A stretch of DNA of 64,000 nt from a virus, in IMG/VR virus record IMGVR_UViG_3300031669_005140. One strand, 5' to 3'. Within the stretch, counting starts at the first letter, position 1, and every line of letters begins with the position of its first letter. Under the pieces are notes generated by a model that saw only the letters and a list, made by a program, of their open reading frames with translations, made no database searches and was not told the origin of the DNA. Positions 5,126 through 64,000 of this stretch are shown one piece after another. A program made the position numbers and the translations under genes.

Positions 5126-5422
5126 ATGTTCACAAATTTTACTGCTATGAAAAATATTGATCTGAGCCAATTATCGTTAGACGAATTAAGAGAACTGAAT
5201 CATCAGGTGATGGAAGTATATTCGCTAAAGGTAAAAATGAACAGTTTGTTTAACAAAAATGCTTTGAATGTTGGCATGACTGTCAGGTATGTCGGCGGCA
5301 AAAATAAAATACAAAATGAAACATTTGTGATTGAAAAAATAATGAATGTTAATGCACGTTGCAAGAGTAATGTAACTGGAGTTAAGTGGAATATTAAATT
5401 AGCGAATCTTGAACCATGCTAA
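5126..5422 (+). CDS. hypothetical protein (probable start 5147)
   Basis: ORF track; after promoter 5087. Confidence 0.7.
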   Translation: MFTNFTAMKNIDLSQLSLDELRELNHQVMEVYSLKVKMNSLFNKNALNVGMTVRYVGGKNKIQNETFVIEKIMNVNARCKSNVTGVKWNIKLANLEPC

Positions 5423-5476
5423 TTGTAACAATGTCCTATTAGTTACGTATAATAAGCATAACCAACACTAATAGCA

Positions 5477-6191: not shown

Positions 6192-6378
6192 TATTGTAAT
6201 AATGTCCTATTAGTTACGTATATATAACTATAATGGTTATTGGGAAAAACCACCTTATGATGAAAAGGGTAAATTAGGTTATGTGAGATAGTTCTCACAT
6301 AACTTTTTTTATTGATAATTGATTGTAACAATGTCCTATTAGTTACGTATAATAGTTATACAATGTTCACTAAAAATT

Positions 6379-6600
6379 ATGGATATGGCAAAGTATTCTA
6401 GCGCAATGAAAAAAATTGTGGATTCCAACATAGGCATTATTAGTAACATGCTAACGGCACAGTGTGAAGATTTCGCAGTAGGCTTAGGTTCTAGCGTAAT
6501 GACTGAAGAGGAGTTTGCTAACGTGGCGATTGCTAAGATAAGGCAAGTAATGCTAAAGAGGCTAATTGAGCTAAACAATTTTGGAAACCATTATGACTGA
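6379..6600 (+). CDS. hypothetical protein; 3' part tandemly duplicated
   Basis: ORF track; after promoter 6324. Confidence 0.6.
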   Translation: MDMAKYSSAMKKIVDSNIGIISNMLTAQCEDFAVGLGSSVMTEEEFANVAIAKIRQVMLKRLIELNNFGNHYD

Positions 6601-6685
6601 AGAGGAGTTTGCTAACGTGGCGATTGCTAAGATAAGGCAAGTAATGCTAAAGAGGCTAATTGAGCTAAACAGTTTTGGAAACTAT
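6499..6685 (+). repeat. 94-bp tandem duplication
   Basis: ATGACTGAAGAGGAGTTTGCTAACG... starts at 6499 and again at 6593; copy 2 has a 1-nt deletion and a few substitutions. Confidence 0.9.
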
Positions 6686-6880
6686 TACATTGAATAGATA
6701 AAGCGAAAATAAATGGACAATGTTACTGTAAAATGTAACATTGTCCCATTAGTTTTCGTTATAATAATATACAATGTTCACTAAAATAGGTTTAATTAAA
6801 ATATTATAAAAACAAAATTTGACAATTAATGTAACAAAACCAAAATAATTACGTATAAGTAAATAGAAATCACAACAGCA

Positions 6881-7093
6881 ATGTTTTATATTTGTTATTA
6901 TAAACTTTTAAAATTAAACGATATGAAACCACAGATGTTATTAAAGATGAGAATTTCCGTTGATTCATCACAGAAACAAAGATATACGGAAGAAGAAATA
7001 AATTTGGAATTTACTAAAGACAACATAGAAATTGAACGGAAATTGGTTATTAGAAAAACTGATGGTGCTGTTATGGGTGAAATCTTAGTTTAA
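6881..7093 (+). CDS. cassette-borne hypothetical protein (probable start 6923)
   Basis: ORF track. Confidence 0.6.
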   Translation: MFYICYYKLLKLNDMKPQMLLKMRISVDSSQKQRYTEEEINLEFTKDNIEIERKLVIRKTDGAVMGEILV

Positions 7094-7126
7094 TTTTATT
7101 GCTTATAACGGTTTGGCTAAAGTGCG

Positions 7127-7459
7127 TTGCCATTAAAATGCACTCAACTATCAAATTATTATGACATGAGTAAAAAGAAAAAGACTTCCGAACAAGCCGA
7201 AACTGGCAATGCAACTTTAGGTGTTGTTACCCACAGTGGTTTTGATAATCCTAAAGAAAAAGCAAAATCAATGGTGAATGACATTCAATTAAAACTTGGA
7301 TTATCGAAGGATGATGCAGTGAATGTTGCCATATACGCAATTCAGACAATGATAACCTACAATCCAATATCCACAACCACTGATGATAGAGAAAGGGAAT
7401 ATCACAAGTATTGGAAAGATGTTGAAATAGAGTTGAACGTTGCTTACCATTGTGGGTAA
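7127..7459 (+). CDS. cassette-borne hypothetical protein; start lies in the attC-like loop
   Basis: ORF track; stop TAA is the TAA of the next TAAC box. Confidence 0.7.
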   Translation: MPLKCTQLSNYYDMSKKKKTSEQAETGNATLGVVTHSGFDNPKEKAKSMVNDIQLKLGLSKDDAVNVAIYAIQTMITYNPISTTTDDREREYHKYWKDVEIELNVAYHCG

Positions 7460-7477
7460 CGGTATTGATAAACGCAG

Positions 7478-7771
7478 TTGAACACTAAATTTAATTATAT
7501 GACAGAACAACAAATAACAGATGAAGCGATAAAATACAGAACTATACAATGGAGTCCAAATAAAGACGATGATATATACTTAGACTGTGAAAACTGTGAA
7601 GAAGATTTTATTGCTGGTGCTAAATGGATGCAAGAACAATTGCGTTTATCTAATGTTAGCCAGCGAAGCGAACTGTTGTTTGCTTTTATCAAAGACTGGA
7701 AAGAGGAATTTAAAGATGAAAACTGGGATTACCTTGATTTTATGGCAGAACGTTTCTTAGGCAAACAATAG
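7478..7771 (+). CDS. cassette-borne hypothetical protein
   Basis: ORF track; spans junction GTTAGC at 7655. Confidence 0.7.
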   Translation: MNTKFNYMTEQQITDEAIKYRTIQWSPNKDDDIYLDCENCEEDFIAGAKWMQEQLRLSNVSQRSELLFAFIKDWKEEFKDENWDYLDFMAERFLGKQ

Positions 7772-7821
7772 TTGCTAACGGTCGCAGATATATTCAGTTG
7801 TTTACTTAAATTGAAACACAA

Positions 7822-8028
7822 ATGATACAAAAAGAAGATTACTTAAAAGCAAAGCAGATTGTTCAAAAATATGAAAAACAATTGAATATATCTGTTGTTA
7901 GCCACCGTTCTTGGGAATGTAATTCATGTGGCTTTAAAGATTATACAGATGCTATTAGCGAAGATGAAATTCATAGCGGATTACTTGCCTGTTCAAACTG
8001 TGGTGGTGATGAATTTCATCTTGTTTGA
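7822..8028 (+). CDS. cassette-borne small Zn-ribbon-like protein
   Basis: CxxC...CxxC (CNSC, CSNC); spans junction 7897. Confidence 0.7.
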   Translation: MIQKEDYLKAKQIVQKYEKQLNISVVSHRSWECNSCGFKDYTDAISEDEIHSGLLACSNCGGDEFHLV

Positions 8029-8147
8029 ATGGTGGCTAACGGTTGGGTATATGTGTTGTACGCCTGACCACAAACTTTAAAATAAAGTACAACACTTCAT
8101 TGGCGTATAACATATATACCTTGTTATATGCAGTTAAATAATACAGT

Positions 8148-8417
8148 ATGAAAGAATTAGTTAAAAAAGTAGATTTATTTGAAAGTATGATGTTGAAATT
8201 TGCACAAGGTAAAATGAATGAAGCAAATGATGCTTTTGCAGAACGACATGGTTACGATTTAAGAGAAACAAAAAATAATGACCATCTTAAATTTTGCCGA
8301 TGGGAAATAGAGGACGAAACTCTAATTCTTTCATACTGTGAAGTAACGCCTCACGATTGTCCTTATGGAATAGACCTTGAATATAAGTTAAGTGATTTGT
8401 CGATTAATTGCATATAA
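8148..8417 (+). CDS. cassette-borne hypothetical protein
   Basis: ORF track; stop lies in the terminal TAAC box. Confidence 0.7.
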   Translation: MKELVKKVDLFESMMLKFAQGKMNEANDAFAERHGYDLRETKNNDHLKFCRWEIEDETLILSYCEVTPHDCPYGIDLEYKLSDLSINCI

Positions 8418-8551
8418 CTCGTTTATATATACACCTTTACTTAGGAACAATGATCTGAGTATCAGTAGATTATGCCATAAAATATTTAATTGTTTTATGG
8501 TAACAATGTTCTATTAGTTTCGTATAATAGGTATAACCAACACAAACTATC

Positions 8552-8827
8552 ATGACAAAAAAGCGGGTTAAAACAGAATCAAACCAGCAAACTTATGTGG
8601 GTTGGAATGGTCATAGGATTAGAATCAATGCATTCTTTTTTGACTATAAGCAAGGGTGTGGCTATAAGTATATGCTTGCTGCAAATGTAAACGATATGAG
8701 CAAAGCAGATTTGTTTAACTTGTTTTACGATTGGGTTAGTGGTAAGACAGAGAAATTGCCTTGGTTTGTTAAAAGTAGAATTGCTGAAACCGATGAAAAG
8801 CGGTTTAAAATTTCACTTAGCATGTAA
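8552..8827 (+). CDS. hypothetical protein
   Basis: ORF track; after promoter 8499. Confidence 0.75.
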   Translation: MTKKRVKTESNQQTYVGWNGHRIRINAFFFDYKQGCGYKYMLAANVNDMSKADLFNLFYDWVSGKTEKLPWFVKSRIAETDEKRFKISLSM

Positions 8828-9092
8828 CAATTAGGTCTAGTTTTCGTATTATAAGTATGTTTAATTAATAGCAATCACGATGTATGAAGTTCATGTAAAT
8901 GGTTTTATCTGGTATGCAGATGTGCGCAACAGAGTTCTTTACGAAGATAGAGAAAAAACCAGAGGCACTCCCTTTTCTTATTTAACAAAAAATGATTTGG
9001 AACAGGTTGAAAATGAACTGAGATTTCCAAGAAGTAAAAAAGAGGATGAAGTCTAAAATAGTAACCCTAGGTCGTAACTAATCTAGGGTTAT

Positions 9093-9166
9093 TTCGTATA
9101 ATGAAATAACTTTTGTCTTATATCGCTGTCGTTGTAGTTAACCAGACTGCCGACAGCGAATTTTTT
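9093..9166 (+). repeat. 74-bp block (promoter -10, short leader, terminator hairpin), copy 1
   Basis: Identical to 10239-10312; hairpin TCGCTGTCG...CGACAGCGA followed by a T-run. Confidence 0.85.
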
Positions 9167-9226
9167 ATTTAGTTGTAACATTTTCCACGTATTTTCGTAT
9201 AATAGGTATAACCAATATTTACTACA

Positions 9227-9427
9227 ATGGGAAATGAATTTAGTGGTGCTGAACTGCAACTCCGTCGTGAAATAATGGAAGCATATACTTTTTTGAGAGA
9301 GAAAAATATGACAATTCCAAGTGAAACGCTTGACTTCATTAAAGATGCTGCACTTGAAAAACTTGAGGTTGCAATTGAAAATCGAAAAAGATGCGAGGAA
9401 TATTTAGAACTTGAAGATAATAATTAA
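9227..9427 (+). CDS. hypothetical protein
   Basis: ORF track; after promoter 9174. Confidence 0.7.
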   Translation: MGNEFSGAELQLRREIMEAYTFLREKNMTIPSETLDFIKDAALEKLEVAIENRKRCEEYLELEDNN

Positions 9428-9689
9428 TACCTTAACTAAATGGAAACCGATTTATTTGACTTAATTAAAAAAAGTTCGGACAAAATTGACACCTACTTGG
9501 GTGATGTATCAACTACGGATTTTGTTGCTGATGTAAAGAGATTAGTAACACAAAACATATCTAAAACTGCCATTGAGGATACGATTAAAAGTTTACAGTC
9601 ACTAATCTCTTAATTTAAAATAACCCTAGGTTGTAACAAATCTAGGGTTATTTCGTATCATAAATATAACCAATAAACACACAACCGTT

Positions 9690-9926
9690 ATGGATGCATA
9701 CTATTATCAAATTGTCGAATTCAATGAACTTTCTCAAAGAGAAGGTGAAATTGTTGATGAAGGTATTATTAGAAGTTCTGAAGATACCATTTATCCTGGG
9801 CAAAATGCCAACAACAGCGATTTGCCTTATGAGTGTGAAGCGCACCATTTTAAGGCTGTCGGATATAGATTAAACCTTTATTCGTTTAGTATTTCGAGAG
9901 AAGAAATTTTAGACAGAGCACTTTAA
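9690..9926 (+). CDS. hypothetical protein
   Basis: ORF track; after promoter 9632. Confidence 0.7.
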   Translation: MDAYYYQIVEFNELSQREGEIVDEGIIRSSEDTIYPGQNANNSDLPYECEAHHFKAVGYRLNLYSFSISREEILDRAL

Positions 9927-10238
9927 ATTGTAACATTTTCCACGTATTTTCGTATAATAAGTATTACAAGAAAAACTTAGAACTTAAACGATTTACAATG
10001 AAAAAAATGGCTAGTATTAGAGGTTCCCCCAAGGAGTAAAACATTTAATTTATAATTTAACTTAGCCGTATATAAAAACTATGAACGCCATGCACAGAAT
10101 TAGAGATCGAACCAACTAAGCAAACTACAAATAAGAACGAAATTTAATATAGACAATTAATAATAAGACTAATCGCCAACCCCAAGATAATTATATAGTG
10201 GGTTGGCGATTAAAGTTTTGTAACAAATTATAATTTTT

Positions 10239-10312
10239 TTCGTATAATGAAATAACTTTTGTCTTATATCGCTGTCGTTGTAGTTAACCAGACTGCCGAC
10301 AGCGAATTTTTT
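10239..10312 (+). repeat. 74-bp block, copy 2
   Basis: Identical to 9093-9166. Confidence 0.85.
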
Positions 10313-10430
10313 TATTTAGTGTAACAAATTCTAATTTTTTTCGTATATTTGTATATCTATTTGTATTATTATTCTAATCGTTGTTGTGGCGTTATGAACC
10401 ACAGCAACGATTTCTTAACACAATTTTATT

Positions 10431-10640
10431 ATGGATATCGAAAGCGAACCCGAATTATCAGAATCTTTAATTGGAAAAAAGGTTAAAATGCTGGATAAGG
10501 AAGGCATTATAGTAATGACTGAAGGACTTAATGTTTATATTCATAAAGATTTTGAACTAGCAAGTAAATCACCTTGGATAACGCATAAATATGTTTATAC
10601 AATATGTGTTAGAATTGAGGATGTGGTTTTTATTGACTAG
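10431..10640 (+). CDS. hypothetical protein
   Basis: ORF track. Confidence 0.7.
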   Translation: MDIESEPELSESLIGKKVKMLDKEGIIVMTEGLNVYIHKDFELASKSPWITHKYVYTICVRIEDVVFID

Positions 10641-10686
10641 TGTAACATTATCCAATACTTTTCGTATAATATAAAAAACATAAGCC

Positions 10687-11076
10687 ATGAGAATTGAAAA
10701 TTCTAAGATAACGCTACGAATTGATTCAGATCAAACAGTAATTGAAATTTTTGATTCTGATGCGTCAACCACAATTGCAAAAGCAATATTAACACCACAG
10801 CAACTATCACAGGTATTGTCTAGGCTTGCCTATGTTGATTGTGAATGTATGGTGGGTGACTTTTCCAGAATTGGTAAGAAAATGGAAAATCAAACGTTTG
10901 AATTTGAAATAACTGGTTCAAAATCGAGCATTGATTTGAATAATGATTGCATTGATGCTTTGTTTCGTGAAGGCATGTCTGACTGGATACCAGATAACTA
11001 CTATCAATCACAGAATTCGTTTTTTAATAAAGACGACAAGCAGTATGCAAGGGTAACAATACGTAGATGGGTTTAA
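10687..11076 (+). CDS. hypothetical protein
   Basis: ORF track; after promoter 10641. Confidence 0.8.
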   Translation: MRIENSKITLRIDSDQTVIEIFDSDASTTIAKAILTPQQLSQVLSRLAYVDCECMVGDFSRIGKKMENQTFEFEITGSKSSIDLNNDCIDALFREGMSDWIPDNYYQSQNSFFNKDDKQYARVTIRRWV

Positions 11077-11091
11077 TTAAAAACTACAGTT

Positions 11092-11280
11092 ATGGCAACG
11101 TTAAGACAATTTATTGCAGAAATTGGCAATACTAAAGAGGAATTGCTTGATAAGGAAATTTTTGTTCGTGCAGAAAACGGATTATTGGTTGAACCAAAAT
11201 TACAATTCCTAGTTAAAGAATTAAGCAATTTTGACTTAGATGCAGATAACGTTGAAAAAATTATTATTGGTTATTTTTAG
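11092..11280 (+). CDS. hypothetical protein
   Basis: ORF track. Confidence 0.65.
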   Translation: MATLRQFIAEIGNTKEELLDKEIFVRAENGLLVEPKLQFLVKELSNFDLDADNVEKIIIGYF

Positions 11281-11319
11281 CGTAACCCTTTTAATTAAGA
11301 TACGTATAATAAGCATAAC

Positions 11320-11495
11320 CAAGTTGGATGCAAAAGCCAAATTTGACGTGTGGATTCTTGTTTTAACCTGCGGACTAATTGAGCAATAGACAAACGAGGA
11401 ATGTAACGAATTAAGAAATGAACGTGGTCTTGGTCTGTTTCCATTACCTCAATATCAAAATCAGAACCATCAGCAATAGATTGAAAAATTTTCAA
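11320..11495 (-). pseudogene. tnpA: internal fragment of an IS200/IS605-family Y1 transposase
   Basis: FDIEVMETDQDHVHFLIRYIPRLSIAQLVRRLKQESTRQIW carries the HUH motif and downstream helix of IS200 TnpA; both ends are missing. Confidence 0.85.
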
Positions 11496-11506
11496 ATTAC
11501 AACAAA

Positions 11507-11722
11507 ATGAAAAACGAAGCAGAAGAGATTGATAACCAACAAGGCAATGGAGTTTTACCGTGTGTTAGCGTGAGTGATGTTCATTCATTTTTAGAATGGT
11601 TAAATAATCAACAACATGATTATATGGGTGGTGAATTTCTATATGATGTGAAAGGATATTACAAACGCTTAAAACAAGGTGAAATGTTTGATTATTGGTT
11701 AGAACGTGTTCATTCACGCTAA
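11507..11722 (+). CDS. cassette-borne hypothetical protein
   Basis: ORF track; stop lies in the TAAC box. Confidence 0.7.
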   Translation: MKNEAEEIDNQQGNGVLPCVSVSDVHSFLEWLNNQQHDYMGGEFLYDVKGYYKRLKQGEMFDYWLERVHSR

Positions 11723-12046
11723 CGGCTGCGGGTTTGTTGTGAAATTTTACGAGTAAATAACTAATAATTTACGATAATGGAAAACTTAAAATATGAAATA
11801 AAAGAGGTGCTTGAGAGCTCAATGATTAAAAGCGAGGTTGCTACAAATTGTGTGCTGCTAACCAAAAGCGTTAATGAAATTGCAGAAGAAATAGTAAAAT
11901 TATGCAATAAACCCGCTGTTAGCAAACGTTTAATCCTCGAAAACTTACTTGAAAGGATGCAAGCAGTTTATCCAGAATATTACTTAGAAATAATACAAGA
12001 TGAGTTAGATGGATTAAATGGATGCTAACTCGTTTATATGTGCACC
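11543..12046 (+). mobile_element. integron-like cassette array 2 (2 cassettes; first site lacks its left arm)
   Basis: Junctions GTTAGCGTGAGTG 11564 / CATTCACGCTAAC 11711-11723 and GTTAGCA 11918 / TGCTAAC 12023-12029; terminal motif 12026-12046. Confidence 0.8.
11777..12028 (+). CDS. cassette-borne hypothetical protein
   Basis: ORF track; start in the hairpin loop, stop in the terminal TAAC box. Confidence 0.7.
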   Translation: MENLKYEIKEVLESSMIKSEVATNCVLLTKSVNEIAEEIVKLCNKPAVSKRLILENLLERMQAVYPEYYLEIIQDELDGLNGC

Positions 12047-12161
12047 TTTACCAAATGTTAACTATCACGTTATCAATTAATAGGCATATTGAAATGATAA
12101 TAGTGTAACAATTTTAAATAAAACTCGTATCATAAGTATAACCAACACAAACACACACACA

Positions 12162-12452
12162 ATGGCAAATTTCTGGTCAATTAAGGAAGAAGAGATTTTA
12201 GCAAGTCTCGTTAGCAGTTCAGCAGATGCGTACGAAGCATTTAGAATTGCATCAAAACAGTTTAACAGAACCTATGTTGCATGTCAAGCACACTGGTCGT
12301 TCATGCTGAAGCGAACAAAAAGAAAGGGTGTAATGATTGTTTGCTATCGTAAGATAATTGCAGACGGCCTCAGCAAAAAAATGATAACGGCCTACAAGTC
12401 AAAAAAACCCACTGGACTTGGAAGTAAAATGGTTCAACTTGCTTTCGGTTAA
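12162..12452 (+). CDS. hypothetical protein (possible Myb/HTH-like N-terminus)
   Basis: WSIKEEEILASLV...IASKQFNRTYVACQAHW resembles a Myb-like helix pattern; after promoter 12104. Confidence 0.6.
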   Translation: MANFWSIKEEEILASLVSSSADAYEAFRIASKQFNRTYVACQAHWSFMLKRTKRKGVMIVCYRKIIADGLSKKMITAYKSKKPTGLGSKMVQLAFG

Positions 12453-12554
12453 AACCTAACAATTAAAATGAAAATCCTGTAAGAAATTACAGGATTTTTT
12501 TGTAACAATACTATTCTAATTTCGTATAATAAGTATAACCAATAAGTATTCAAA

Positions 12555-12815
12555 ATGAAAATACTTGAATTAGATGGACTTATGTACTCTAGGGATAGTT
12601 TTGAAAACTATAGATTTAGAGCCAAGGTAATGATTGAAACATCAAATGACACATTTTTCTTGGACGTGTATACAACAGATACGAATAGAGAAAATGTTGA
12701 AAAGGTGCTGCTGGATAGAAAATCGATTATTGTTAAATCTTTAGCAATTATTTACTGGTCGTCAAAGGAGCAAGATGATGCTACAACAGAATTTATCAAT
12801 GATACTCTAAAATAG
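12555..12815 (+). CDS. hypothetical protein
   Basis: ORF track; after terminator 12471-12500 and promoter 12501. Confidence 0.75.
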   Translation: MKILELDGLMYSRDSFENYRFRAKVMIETSNDTFFLDVYTTDTNRENVEKVLLDRKSIIVKSLAIIYWSSKEQDDATTEFINDTLK

Positions 12816-12818
12816 GAA

Positions 12819-13007
12819 TTGACGATGAAAAACAAATACGATTTACTTGCTGAGATTTCAATTGCAATTTTTCTTTTTGTAATATTTGCTTGTGTAATAA
12901 CAATTACCGTAGCACTAACTCACCAAGATCAATCCGCTTTAGTAATTTTAGGCAGTATTTCATTGGGCGCATATATTGCATTCAGAATAATGAGATATGT
13001 TGAATGA
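12819..13007 (+). CDS. small membrane protein (2 TM)
   Basis: Two hydrophobic stretches; terminator 13041-13070 follows. Confidence 0.7.
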   Translation: MTMKNKYDLLAEISIAIFLFVIFACVITITVALTHQDQSALVILGSISLGAYIAFRIMRYVE

Positions 13008-13166
13008 AAAATAATATTTGGTTGTTGTTTGGTTTGCTTTTACCCCCTGCTGGTTACAGGGGGTTTTTTATTTTAAATTAGTGTAACAAATTTGAAAATT
13101 AAACGTATAATATAATTGAAATACTATAGCAATGTTTTATATTTGTTGTTATAAACAGTTTTTATT

Positions 13167-13379
13167 ATGATGATAATTTCGCAGGGAGCAACTGCTCAAT
13201 ATAATGAAAGTGGTGAAGAAGTATCTTACTGGTGCTATAAAAGAGGTGCGTGGATTACTCACAAAAGATATGAGCAGTTTTATCCATTTACCACTGAACT
13301 GCCACAACCGTATAAAAACAAACAACACCATCAAGAATCAAATCCAAAATGGCAAAATGAAAGGAAGATGTTTCTTTAA
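13167..13379 (+). CDS. cassette-borne hypothetical protein
   Basis: ORF track. Confidence 0.55.
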   Translation: MMIISQGATAQYNESGEEVSYWCYKRGAWITHKRYEQFYPFTTELPQPYKNKQHHQESNPKWQNERKMFL

Positions 13380-13504
13380 TATGTTTGCTAACGTTTTGTG
13401 TATGAGCAGTGGCACTTGTACACACTTTCAAATTAGCTACACCGCTTGTGTGCCATTGCTTATACACGGTGTTAGGCACAGGTTTTTAATTAATAATTCA
13501 AAAT

Positions 13505-13951
13505 ATGAGAAAAATACACATAAACAACGATGACAATTACGCTACACCACCCGAATTTTATAAGGCATTGGATAAGCGTTTTAAATTTGATTTTGACCCA
13601 TGCCCATATTGCGAGGGCGAAGTTATTGATGGGTTAAGCATTGAATGGGGAAGCTCAAACTTTATAAACCCGCCTTACAGCCAAAAACTAAAGGAAGAGT
13701 TTGTAAAGAAAGGAATTGAAGAAATGCAAAAAGGGAAAGTTTGTGTTTTTTTGATACCTGTAAGCACTTCGACAAAACTATTTCATAAATACATTAAGCC
13801 AAATGCAACCGAAATAGAATTTATTGAAGGCAGAATAAAGTTTGGGAAACTGGATGAAAAAGGCAACTTTTATTTACCATTAAACGCAAAAGGTAAAACC
13901 CAAAGCGGAACAAAAGATAGTATGGTAGTAGTTTTCGATGGGCGATCTTAA
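13505..13951 (+). CDS. phage Dam-like DNA N6-adenine methyltransferase (cassette-borne)
   Basis: YATPPEF...FDFDPC...FINPPYS...VFLIPVST...IEFIEGRIKF pattern of small phage N6-MTases. Confidence 0.85.
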   Translation: MRKIHINNDDNYATPPEFYKALDKRFKFDFDPCPYCEGEVIDGLSIEWGSSNFINPPYSQKLKEEFVKKGIEEMQKGKVCVFLIPVSTSTKLFHKYIKPNATEIEFIEGRIKFGKLDEKGNFYLPLNAKGKTQSGTKDSMVVVFDGRS

Positions 13952-14068
13952 ACTTGTGCCTAACGGTCGAGGCTATGAACTGAAAGCCGACACCACAAAA
14001 GATAATTAATAGTAATAACCTTAATAAAGGCTTTTTGTTTATAGCCTTTGTTAGCAACTTTTAAAATT

Positions 14069-14215
14069 ATGGAACGATTAGCAGATAAGACAGTAGAAGA
14101 ATTGAAACAAATTAGAGAAGATTATGTTAAAAAGTACATTGGTGACTTTGATAAACCAATAGATTATGCACGAACTTTATTACACTTGGATAGGTTAATA
14201 ATGGCGAAAGGGTAA
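14069..14215 (+). CDS. cassette-borne 48-aa protein
   Basis: Read manually (MERLADKTVEELKQIRE...); fills the cassette between GTTAGCAAC and GTTGCTAAC. Confidence 0.6.
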   Translation: MERLADKTVEELKQIREDYVKKYIGDFDKPIDYARTLLHLDRLIMAKG

Positions 14216-14290
14216 TAATTTTTATTGTTGCTAACGGTTGCAGGTATATTTTGATTTTTTACGGATTTGAAACACTAAAACTAAATAACA

Positions 14291-14524
14291 ATGATTAGAA
14301 CACCAGAAGAACAACATTTGCACGAACTTATAGAAAGTTACGTTGCTCCATTGCGAAGTGAAATAAAAGAACTACGCAAAGAATTAGCAGAACAGCAAGT
14401 AAAAAATTTGAATATACCTGCTGTTATGGGTGAGTTAACTTGCGATAGTTGCGGTTGCCATCCAAATGTGATATACACAACAGGTAAGGGTAGATTTTGC
14501 GAAAGGTGTATACCAGCAAGTTAA
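14291..14524 (+). CDS. cassette-borne coiled-coil plus Zn-finger protein
   Basis: CDSC...CERC after the junction at 14423. Confidence 0.7.
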   Translation: MIRTPEEQHLHELIESYVAPLRSEIKELRKELAEQQVKNLNIPAVMGELTCDSCGCHPNVIYTTGKGRFCERCIPAS

Positions 14525-14795
14525 TTACCCATAACTCGTTTATATGTGCACCTATTTACTAGGTAAGCATCTGATAATCATTAAATAAATTAGTAATGAC
14601 TATAATCAAAATGTAACAATTCTGGTTATATTTCGTATAATAGGTATAGGCTGGGTAAAACTAGGGTGCAGTAATCCATACCTGCCTTATATTCTGATTA
14701 TTTAGAATCTATTTAGATAATCGTTTTATTTAAAATATTGTAACCTTTTTAATTAAGATACGTATAATAAGTATTATTAACTAACAACAACTATT

Positions 14796-32572: not shown

Positions 32573-32686
32573 TGTCCAGATAATGTCCATATTTTATCCA
32601 ACTAATTTATATATAACTAGTTGGCAATGTCCAGATAATGTCCCGATAACTCAGGACATTTTTTTATAATATAATTGTTATAAAAT

Positions 32687-63760: not shown

Positions 63761-64000
63761 AGTGTATATATAAACGAGTTGTAGGCAATTACCGCCTGAA
63801 ACGGTTGCTGTTATCTTTGGGGTAAAGTACTTTCATTAAGTTTTTGTGTTCTTTGTCAGTTATCGGATTAGGCGGTAACTGTTCGCTTCGCCCTACAACA
63901 CGTGGTATAGTTAAATTTTTAACCTTACTTTCTACGTGTTTTTCAAAATCCAATATCATTTCCATAATATTCATCGGAACTTCTGTTGTGCTGTATCCGT
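63761..64000 (-). mobile_element. 3' end of integron-like cassette array 4 (continues past the window end)
   Basis: Minus strand: junction GTTGTAGGG at 63899, cassette end GCCTACAAC, then terminal motif AACTCGTTTATATATACAC (63786 to 63761). Confidence 0.75.
63789..63974 (-). CDS. cassette-borne hypothetical protein
   Basis: VKNLTIPRV|VGRSEQL junction. Confidence 0.65.
   Translation of the reverse strand: MNIMEMILDFEKHVESKVKNLTIPRVVGRSEQLPPNPITDKEHKNLMKVLYPKDNSNRFRR

Follow-up and report, generated by a model that had tools for sequence, protein, structure and literature searches.

Why do rows of small, hairpin-separated genes in a phage genome begin and end with recurring short sequences, and which of these sequences, if any, marks a recombination platform? 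This question is raised by the 64-kb stretch of viral DNA in IMG/VR record IMGVR_UViG_3300031669_005140 (the window), in which arrays of such genes are closed by one conserved motif (the 3' motif) and in two cases opened by another (the 5' motif) behind a promoter. The original prediction, made from the letters of this DNA, had taken the 5' motif as an attI-like platform site and the 3' motif as the end site. The analysis argues for a different layout. The arrays are most probably integron-like and of a type belonging to phages of Bacteroidota, in which the 3' motif is the attI-type primary site and the 5' motif an arm of a hairpin. This reading is based on the anatomy of the arrays, the association of the site with recombinase genes and cassette-exact breakpoints at YAAC| in related phages, where the bar marks the junction.

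The closing motif and the cassettes

The 3' motif has the structure YAAC|TCGTTTATATRTRCAC, with the full form TAACTCGTTTATATRTRCAC. A scan of the window revealed four copies against 0.03 expected, three of them on the plus strand (8415, 12026 and 14532) and a CAAC variant on the minus strand (63781-63762). All four are located at array ends, and the 20-mer is preserved among them whereas the flanks on both sides differ. A second box (CTGAGTATCA / CTGATAATCA) follows the motif, with a (T/A)ATCA(A/G/T)T core 41-42 nt past the junction in arrays 1, 2 and 3. Internal left arms of the arrays reach 9.5-14.5 on a complementarity score, whereas the best complementary run in the 400 nt after the 3' motif scores 5-7.5, with a mean of 7 in shuffled sequence. 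No partner arm above shuffle level was found within these 400 nt. The original prediction was thus correct in that the motif closes the arrays, lacks a partner arm and is followed by a second box in arrays 1 and 3, to which array 2 can be added. Downstream of the junction lie modules of approximately 75 nt in at least three versions, each of which is shared with another contig of the same sampling campaign; cassettes and neighboring genes are unrelated between the contigs sharing a version. The features are listed below.

6789-6813, plus strand: decayed remnant of a left arm (GGTTTAATT..) belonging to the promoter hairpin of array 1, spaced as in a full hairpin and without a YAAC foot
6830-6858, plus strand: promoter of the extracytoplasmic function (ECF) type at the head of array 1, in the hairpin loop
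6877-6905, plus strand: 5' motif of array 1, in which an attC-like hairpin contributes its right arm, with the (A/G)TTA core and the opening bases of the cassette body
6906-8418, plus strand: array 1, five cassettes of one open reading frame (ORF) each, with YAAC| ends at 7110, 7460, 7779, 8040 and 8418
7226, 7655, 7897 and 8123, plus strand: GTTA cores of array 1
8415-8434, plus strand: 3' motif of array 1, TAAC of the last cassette plus the invariant attI-type half-site
8419-8492, plus strand: 3' module variant 1, approximately 75 nt, 88-100% conserved in contigs L001, L003 and L270, with a TATCAGT box at 8460-8466
11281-11311, plus strand: variant promoter at the head of array 2, where the 5' motif is absent
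11316-11489, minus strand: dead IS200/IS605-type tnpA fragment, residues 46-103 of 139, 71% identical to a phage-borne copy
11507-12029, plus strand: array 2, two cassettes, with junction ends at 11723 and 12029 and a GTTA core at 11918
12026-12045, plus strand: 3' motif of array 2, with the second box TATCAAT at 12071-12077
13082-13110, plus strand: ECF-type promoter that opens array 3; it is homologous to full promoter hairpins from about TGTAAC (-35) onward, and the left arm is absent
13128-13156, plus strand: 5' motif of array 3, hairpin right arm plus GTTA core
13157-14535, plus strand: array 3, four cassettes, with junction ends at 13392, 13964, 14235 and 14535
14532-14551, plus strand: 3' motif of array 3; module variant 2, also present in L002, comes next, and the box AATCATT is at 14576-14582
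63762-63781, minus strand: 3' motif of the fourth array, CAAC variant, with module variant 3 (shared with L004) downstream

The fourth array continues past the end of the window. A fifth, weak match to the 3' motif at 32597-32623 on the minus strand (CAACTAGTTATATAT) was rejected as an ordinary small inverted repeat outside any array; it has the form CCAACTA..TAGTTGG and follows a minus-strand gene. Also discarded was the idea that the 3' and 5' motifs are the halves of a single hairpin opened by integration of an array, as the two are not complementary (scores of 5-6).

Between the motifs, the boundaries of the genes all read x'-YAAC | left arm .. loop .. right arm | GTTA-x. The two arms pair over a loop of 30-300 nt that usually harbors the start codon of the next ORF, and ORF stop codons overlap YAAC; each YAAC-to-YAAC unit of the window contains one whole plus-strand ORF. 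Seven of the eight internal junctions were called as YAAC..GTTA hairpins compared with 0-5 calls (mean approximately 1) in shuffled sequence, all hairpin counts being minimum figures because the finder is ungapped and uses fixed core sequences. The 10-20 nt past GTTA and the 10-20 nt that precede the next YAAC, at the other end of the same gene body, are complementary. Such pairs (GTTA x .. x' TAAC, 15-21 nt) are I4, I13, I23 and I24 in the window and I1 in the phage Freya_10. The sequences vary from unit to unit, and what remains constant is the pairing, the cores and a one-sided bulge, with 2-4 extra bases, mostly GGT, on the YAAC side in 60 of the 62 hairpins of the window and 18 related loci.

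A cassette is accordingly read in the order left arm with its 2-4 unpaired bases (GGT), loop, right arm, GTTR core, ORF body and ATT....YAAC tail, the tail being complementary to the bases directly past GTTR. In a free circle closed at YAAC these parts would form one long imperfect hairpin, like the attC site of an integron. The ORFs of the window run towards the 3' attI-type site; one of them, in an array-3 cassette, encodes a Dam-type methyltransferase (13505-13951; PF05869, E = 5.6e-18).

Recombinase genes and breakpoints in related phages and bacteria

A related phage locus, L076, carries the same promoter hairpins as the window. Its array ends with ..cttaac|tattatatat.., and a gene for a recombinase of 268 aa starts 37 nt further on. 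The protein matches PF00589 (4e-38) and PF13495, and scores below the cut-offs of the NCBIfam Xer and IntI models. A search with this protein yielded 25 phage loci from many samples, with identities of 46-100%. A sequence of the type YAAC|T.TTATATAT was located by eye 45-60 nt before the recombinase start codon in all 25, and YAAC+TATTATATAT with at most two mismatches was present in 23 of them, with 10 other matches in 364 kb. Hairpin arrays are found upstream of the recombinase gene and in its orientation; downstream of it, or on the other strand, there are practically none. The four sites of the window align with the consensus of these loci, and the alignment extends to the ATT....YAAC tail of the final cassette and to the distal box, which is CCAATAAAATCAAT at +37/38 in the recombinase-bearing relatives. 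In L087 a promoter cassette directly precedes the attI-type site. In L048 (2700-3260) a Xer-like gene cut off at residue 121 stands immediately after two tandem copies of ..tttataac|gattgcaaatatgag.., and it looks as if a hairpin left arm had recombined into the recombinase gene.

The position of the crossover can be read from relatives that differ in their cassettes. L123 and L124, which originate from different samples, are 100% identical over the 1229 nt from the junction AAC through the recombinase gene and unrelated upstream. The near-identical Polaribacter phages Freya_1 to Freya_10 (MT732463-MT732472) encode an integrase 35% identical to the L076 enzyme in flanks that are 100% identical, with the half-site ACCCCTATAAC.. 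50 nt before the integrase start. Five different cassettes abut this half-site in Freya_1, 5, 6, 9 and 10, with the tails ..acaac, ..accaac (twice), ..gctaac and ..actaccaac. The arrays of Freya_1, 2, 5, 9 and 10 constitute a nested series differing at the integrase-proximal end, in which the places of Freya_2, 5 and 9 rest partly on record-length arithmetic; Freya_6 has a different cassette at this end. Freya_8 lacks a block of 902 nt exactly between two YAAC| points, having lost the left arm after the first and kept the left arm after the second. This deletion, together with the constant half-site right after YAAC, rules out a crossover at G|TTA on the ORF strand, where the junction would lie inside genes. 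The crossover is thereby placed at the YAAC foot, and therefore each cassette contains a whole gene. Cassette gain and loss upstream of the integrase explains the range of isolate sizes (44.0-48.9 kb). In the paper describing the Freya phages the integrase is read as hinting at a possibly temperate lifestyle, with no mention of cassettes. These isolates represent a cultured system in which gain and loss of cassettes evidently happened recently.

In the proposed mechanism the right half TCGTTTATATRTRCAC and the second box approximately 42 nt further on would form the fixed duplex part of the platform, whereas the left half, ..YAAC, would derive from the latest cassette to enter. Strands would be exchanged at YAAC| by a Xer-like tyrosine recombinase, with the 3' site and the hairpin folded by a cassette circle as partners, excision would proceed by the same exchange between two hairpins, and arrays would grow and shrink at the end marked by the 3' motif. 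With the phage genes on the YAAC|GG strand, a hairpin would head each gene and the fixed site would come to lie downstream of the row. A platform promoter beside the 3' site could not drive such a row; because the phage ORFs read towards the attI-type site, transcription would fall to the hairpin at the far end that has a promoter in its loop. Such a mechanism would explain the gene-by-gene exchange of small, probably anti-defense or takeover genes, among them the Dam methylase, in this phage.

The half-site of the window is also present in bacteria. Its 18-mer occurs 126 times in metagenome contigs, in 108 cases preceded by C or T, and all 17 loci that reach far enough contain a Xer/IntI-like integrase of approximately 370 aa convergent to the site, with the stop codon mostly 136-139 nt after the motif. 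These elements (type B, with an L181/L292-like integrase) have their ORFs on the other strand, so that in gene direction the integrase comes first, then the site and then successive ORF-hairpin units. Relatives of the integrase, 297 in all, were found in genomes of Flavobacterium, Schleiferia, Kaistella, Chitinophaga, Saprospiraceae, Bacteroidales and Ignavibacteria. In the loci where the gene had been picked correctly, a site of the type ..ATATAAACGA|GTTR (..ATATA(A/T)AC(G/A)A|GTTR), a variant of the 18-mer, lies 80-100 nt past the integrase stop; in Flavobacterium limicola it is followed by three hairpin-bounded cassettes. The type B integrase passes the XerA/integron-integrase model NF040815 and is matched by IntI models only in two pieces that stay under the cut-offs. 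Among solved structures XerA is the nearest to it and IntI4, split in two, the third; the integrases of relatives score 137.9 and 219.5 against TIGR02249, for which the cut-off is 265. These matches are consistent with absence of the IntI-specific insert from the type B integrase.

Type B elements and the window share 18 bases of the half-site by the crossover, and the half-site of the window is of this bacterial type rather than of the phage Xer type. With the phage arrays they have in common the polarity of the hairpins relative to the site and a recombinase 40-47% identical to the phage enzyme. They differ in that their ORFs point away from the site, as they do in ordinary integrons, and in that the integrase has 345-376 aa with an extra N-terminal part and is encoded on the other strand relative to the site. 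Many contigs of Bacteroidota metagenome-assembled genomes (L283-L362) stop 100-300 nt past integrase and site, which suggests that repeated hairpin arrays break the assemblies there and that type B elements are under-reported.

Orphan sites, array movement and promoter hairpins

Several observations weigh against the reading of the arrays as integron-like with an attI-type 3' motif. No tyrosine recombinase gene was detected in the window by tblastn with three queries, and no PF00589 protein in the contigs behind L002, L003 and L004 (202 kb, 50 kb and 61 kb; 66%, 15% and 62% complete), all three with the identical 3' motif. A short partner arm (..TATATGCACC, loop, GGTGCATATAT..) accompanies 52 of the 126 instances of the 18-mer, so that type B sites differ in this respect from those of the window. 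The phage Xer genes are accompanied by a somewhat different half-site (TATTATATAT) than that of the window, and exact phage-type copies of TCGTTTATAT all stem from one sampling campaign (Ga0307375/6). To these points must be added the minimum nature of the hairpin counts. The chemistry of strand exchange is deduced, across the family, by comparison of sequences.

As judged from the sequence, the four sites of the window are orphans. They are presumably still used, in which case the enzyme would be needed in trans, either from elsewhere in this phage of more than 200 kb or from a chromosomal element of the host. Neither the type B integrase nor the phage Xer enzyme is more than a candidate for the cognate recombinase, because type B sites have a partner arm and phage Xer genes another half-site. 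That an integron-like integrase of the host chromosome services the orphan sites is a tentative proposal, though a real possibility because the half-site is of the bacterial type and such sites (L183, L188, L209 and L229) occur in the same metagenome as the window. If so, virus and host would share a recombination machinery but keep two separate cassette pools on opposite strands, the pool of the phage being made expressible by mobile promoter cassettes.

The orphan state could also mean that the arrays are fossils, inactive leftovers of a platform that has lost its recombinase, comparable to attC-site clusters that have no integron integrase (CALIN), with the motif conserved through the youth of the copies. 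A recombinase is absent from the window and three related contigs, the first hairpin has a decayed left arm in array 1 and none in array 3, and a dead tnpA fragment is located at the head of array 2. However, the 20-mer is preserved in four copies between differing flanks and in front of at least three module versions, the internal hairpins are intact, and a closely related contig has the same 3' module elsewhere and with other cassettes. On balance the fossil state is unlikely, while it deserves consideration.

The contig in question, L270, is a strain variant of 1.9 kb and belongs to the same sampling campaign. Its flanks are 98.6-100% identical to positions 5369-5454 and 6319-6527 of the window, and between two promoters it harbors an array with 3' module variant 1. 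The last hairpin in this array belongs to the 5'-motif family, so that 5' and 3' motifs stand approximately 230 nt apart around one ORF of 52 aa. The left junction of the array lies inside the -10 box of a promoter (TTCGTATAAC|GG). Whole arrays thus seem to move between the repeated promoters of the phage, and the route looks like recombination at these repeats. In the contigs of four runs (Logan), branch points at 8413, 8434, 14530, 14602, 13961/14057, 13389/13475 and 7457 coincide with edges of modules and hairpins, showing only that the pieces recur in other contexts; none of these contigs reads across a cassette deletion in this phage.

Shuffling by homologous recombination at repeated promoters and stem-loops, in which no site-specific enzyme takes part, as in the promoter early stem-loop (PeSL) modules of phages, might on its own account for the arrays. 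The window contains dozens of near-identical promoters, and the rearrangement in L270 ends in promoter sequence. Such shuffling leaves unexplained why the ends of each cassette are complementary despite unrelated sequence, why the YAAC/GTTR cores and the one-sided bulge are fixed, why breakpoints are base-exact at YAAC| and why a recombinase gene is constantly linked to the site. As a full explanation it is therefore improbable.

A role of the hairpins and the end motif in RNA processing, termination or translational coupling, instead of as DNA sites, would agree with the overlap of stop codons with YAAC, the start codons in the loops and the co-transcription of all arrays. In bacteria, however, the same sites have ORFs on the opposite strand, units are gained and lost at the sites at the DNA level, and no relevant family was matched in Rfam. 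This explanation is very improbable, while the hairpins may have a secondary RNA role beside the one in DNA.

The 5' motif, a 29-mer, occurs at 6877 and 13128 (two copies observed, none expected in the window), in both cases approximately 20 nt past a TGTAAC-N16-CGTATAA promoter (-35 at 6830 and 13082), so that arrays 1 and 3 open as the original prediction had stated. Promoters of this type number at least 34 in the window, which also encodes an ECF-type sigma factor; none was detected further inside arrays 1 and 3. The promoter and 5' motif module was found in many unrelated phage contigs by BLAST against loci from viral contigs. A 17-mer scan of viral contigs returned mostly chance matches in AT-rich sequence, and those with at least 60 nt of similarity were kept. 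Of 17 distinct copies of the 5' motif, 14 form the right arm of a complete hairpin, whose complementary left arm GGTTGCAAATATRAAACGTT lies approximately 90 nt upstream, directly after the YAAC tail of the preceding cassette. The two copies of the window are exceptions to this complete form. The hairpin family has two loop versions, one with the TGTAAC..CGTATAA promoter and one without.

These data bear on the layout of the original prediction, in which cassettes would enter at the 5' motif, an attI-like site governed by a fixed promoter of the Pc kind, and the 3' motif would merely mark the far end. The position of the 5' motif behind a promoter at the head of arrays 1 and 3 is in line with that role. 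However, array 2 lacks the motif, 14 of the 17 copies are complete hairpin arms with a cassette before them, the motif can belong to the last hairpin of an array as in L270, and cassette turnover in relatives occurs at the opposite end; the chance that this layout is correct is minimal. Because it is a complete hairpin arm in most copies and part of the last hairpin in L270, the 5' motif is, on the present comparison, an ordinary attC-like hairpin arm, usually internal to arrays, and not a platform site. The prediction of an integron-type platform with one attI-like site holds, with the roles of the two motifs reversed. The likeness of the promoter to Pc applies in part. It probably transcribes the array, since arrays 1 and 3 hold no other promoter of this type, but it resides in the loop of a cassette hairpin, which is best described as a mobile promoter cassette rather than a fixed Pc beside attI. 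The proposed spread of the platform is plausible in view of the same 3' module with its array elsewhere in L270. An empty platform with both motifs adjacent, expected as a TATAAAC-TC-GTTTATA palindrome, was not found; the nearest cases are L270 and L087.

Many promoters of the window (at 5440-5476, 8520-8550, 9200-9226 and others) are followed by a common 5' leader, ..CGTATAATAGGTATAACCAA.., which includes an ATAAC resembling a cassette tail. A tandem duplication of approximately 93 nt (..gactgaagaggagtttgctaacgtggcg..) at 6500-6680, at the end of the ORF 6379-6600, contains GCTAACG in each copy.

Between the promoter and the first ORF of array 2 lies the tnpA fragment (11316-11489), which retains the HUH motif and lacks the region of the catalytic tyrosine. 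Single-strand transposition of the IS200/IS605 type, with units inserting 3' of TAAC via a Y1 HUH transposase, would match this fragment, the intact copies in one related phage and the terminal tetranucleotide shared by head-to-tail units, but it is scarcely credible, as hairpin arrays are not found near the intact copies (G005), a Y1_Tnp gene is absent from four other contigs with arrays, the hairpins lack the compact left-end/right-end form and the arrays are tied to a Xer-type tyrosine recombinase. Of an IS200/IS605 element, which has an intact Y1 HUH transposase and compact subterminal hairpins, there is only this fragment of 58 residues without both ends. The 93-kb phage contig behind L093 (L116, L117, L118) encodes a Y1 HUH transposase in two intact copies and one partial copy, and also hairpin arrays that are not adjacent to them.

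Comparison with known systems

PeSL modules are known from T4-type phages, in which small genes of hyperplastic regions are placed between repeated promoter and stem-loop units that favor shuffling by homologous recombination between the repeats. Shuffling of this kind is probably the explanation for the movement of whole arrays between promoters, as in L270. The arrays of the window differ from PeSL modules by a conserved crossover core, self-complementary cassette ends and a dedicated recombinase in their relatives. In the Xer-dependent dif modules of Acinetobacter plasmids, genes lie between Xer-type sites in alternating orientation. The dif sites are a fixed duplex of 28 bp, whereas the arms of the phage hairpins vary and keep only the pairing, the cores and the bulge, which points to recognition of a folded strand.

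With two to five hairpin junctions per array and no integrase within 64 kb, the arrays correspond by structure to CALINs (at least two attC sites, no integrase in reach). Clusters of attC sites without integrase have been described in virulent phages, including a Polaribacter phage, in the part of Qi et al. 2023 (PMC9892861) that concerns them, where it is also reported that IntI1 can use phage attC sites and the sites are treated as pieces of bacterial integrons. Those CALINs resemble the window in their clustered hairpin sites, the lack of an integrase nearby and their methyltransferase cassettes; the passages concerned contain no phage-encoded Xer-like enzyme, attI-type end site or reversed gene orientation. 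According to IntegronFinder 2.0, complete integrons are almost lacking from Bacteroidetes. The literature searched yielded no description of a phage platform with a Xer-like recombinase, of its attI-type site and reversed gene orientation, or of a chromosomal counterpart in Bacteroidota. New in the analysis are the identity of both boundary motifs, the evidence from cultured isolates that places the crossover to the base, and the half-site common to phage and host-type elements.

The likeness to classical integrons lies in one fixed, non-hairpin site beside a tyrosine recombinase gene, in cassette borders formed by imperfect hairpins with AAC/GTT cores, one-sided extra bases and complementary cassette ends, and in insertion and loss at the fixed site by exchange at AAC| (G|TT on the other strand). 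Hairpins of the attC type with polarity bases are present by structure, and the start of each cassette is complementary to its own inverse core. An attI-type site beside the integrase gene is found in 23-25 of the 25 phage loci, all 17 metagenome loci and bacterial genomes, whereas the sites of the window are orphans. Unlike in classical integrons, an integrase with the IntI-specific domain is absent from the window, and the recombinases of the relatives are short and Xer-like, matching IntI models in two pieces below the cut-offs. The phage cassettes are not promoterless units reading away from attI under a Pc; their ORFs are on the other strand, so that the hairpin heads the gene, the fixed site lies downstream and the promoter is located in a cassette hairpin. 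The complementary cassette ends of the phage are also longer, with approximately 12 nt (ATT....YAAC).

Integrons are regarded as bacterial and as dependent on the specialized IntI. The boundary motif would link phage cassette rows, phage Xer-like recombinases and a very widespread chromosomal element of Bacteroidota by one type of site and one crossover. It also provides a testable substrate, a duplex half-site of 20 bp plus a folded hairpin, with which it can be asked whether a plain Xer-like enzyme performs the chemistry of integrons.

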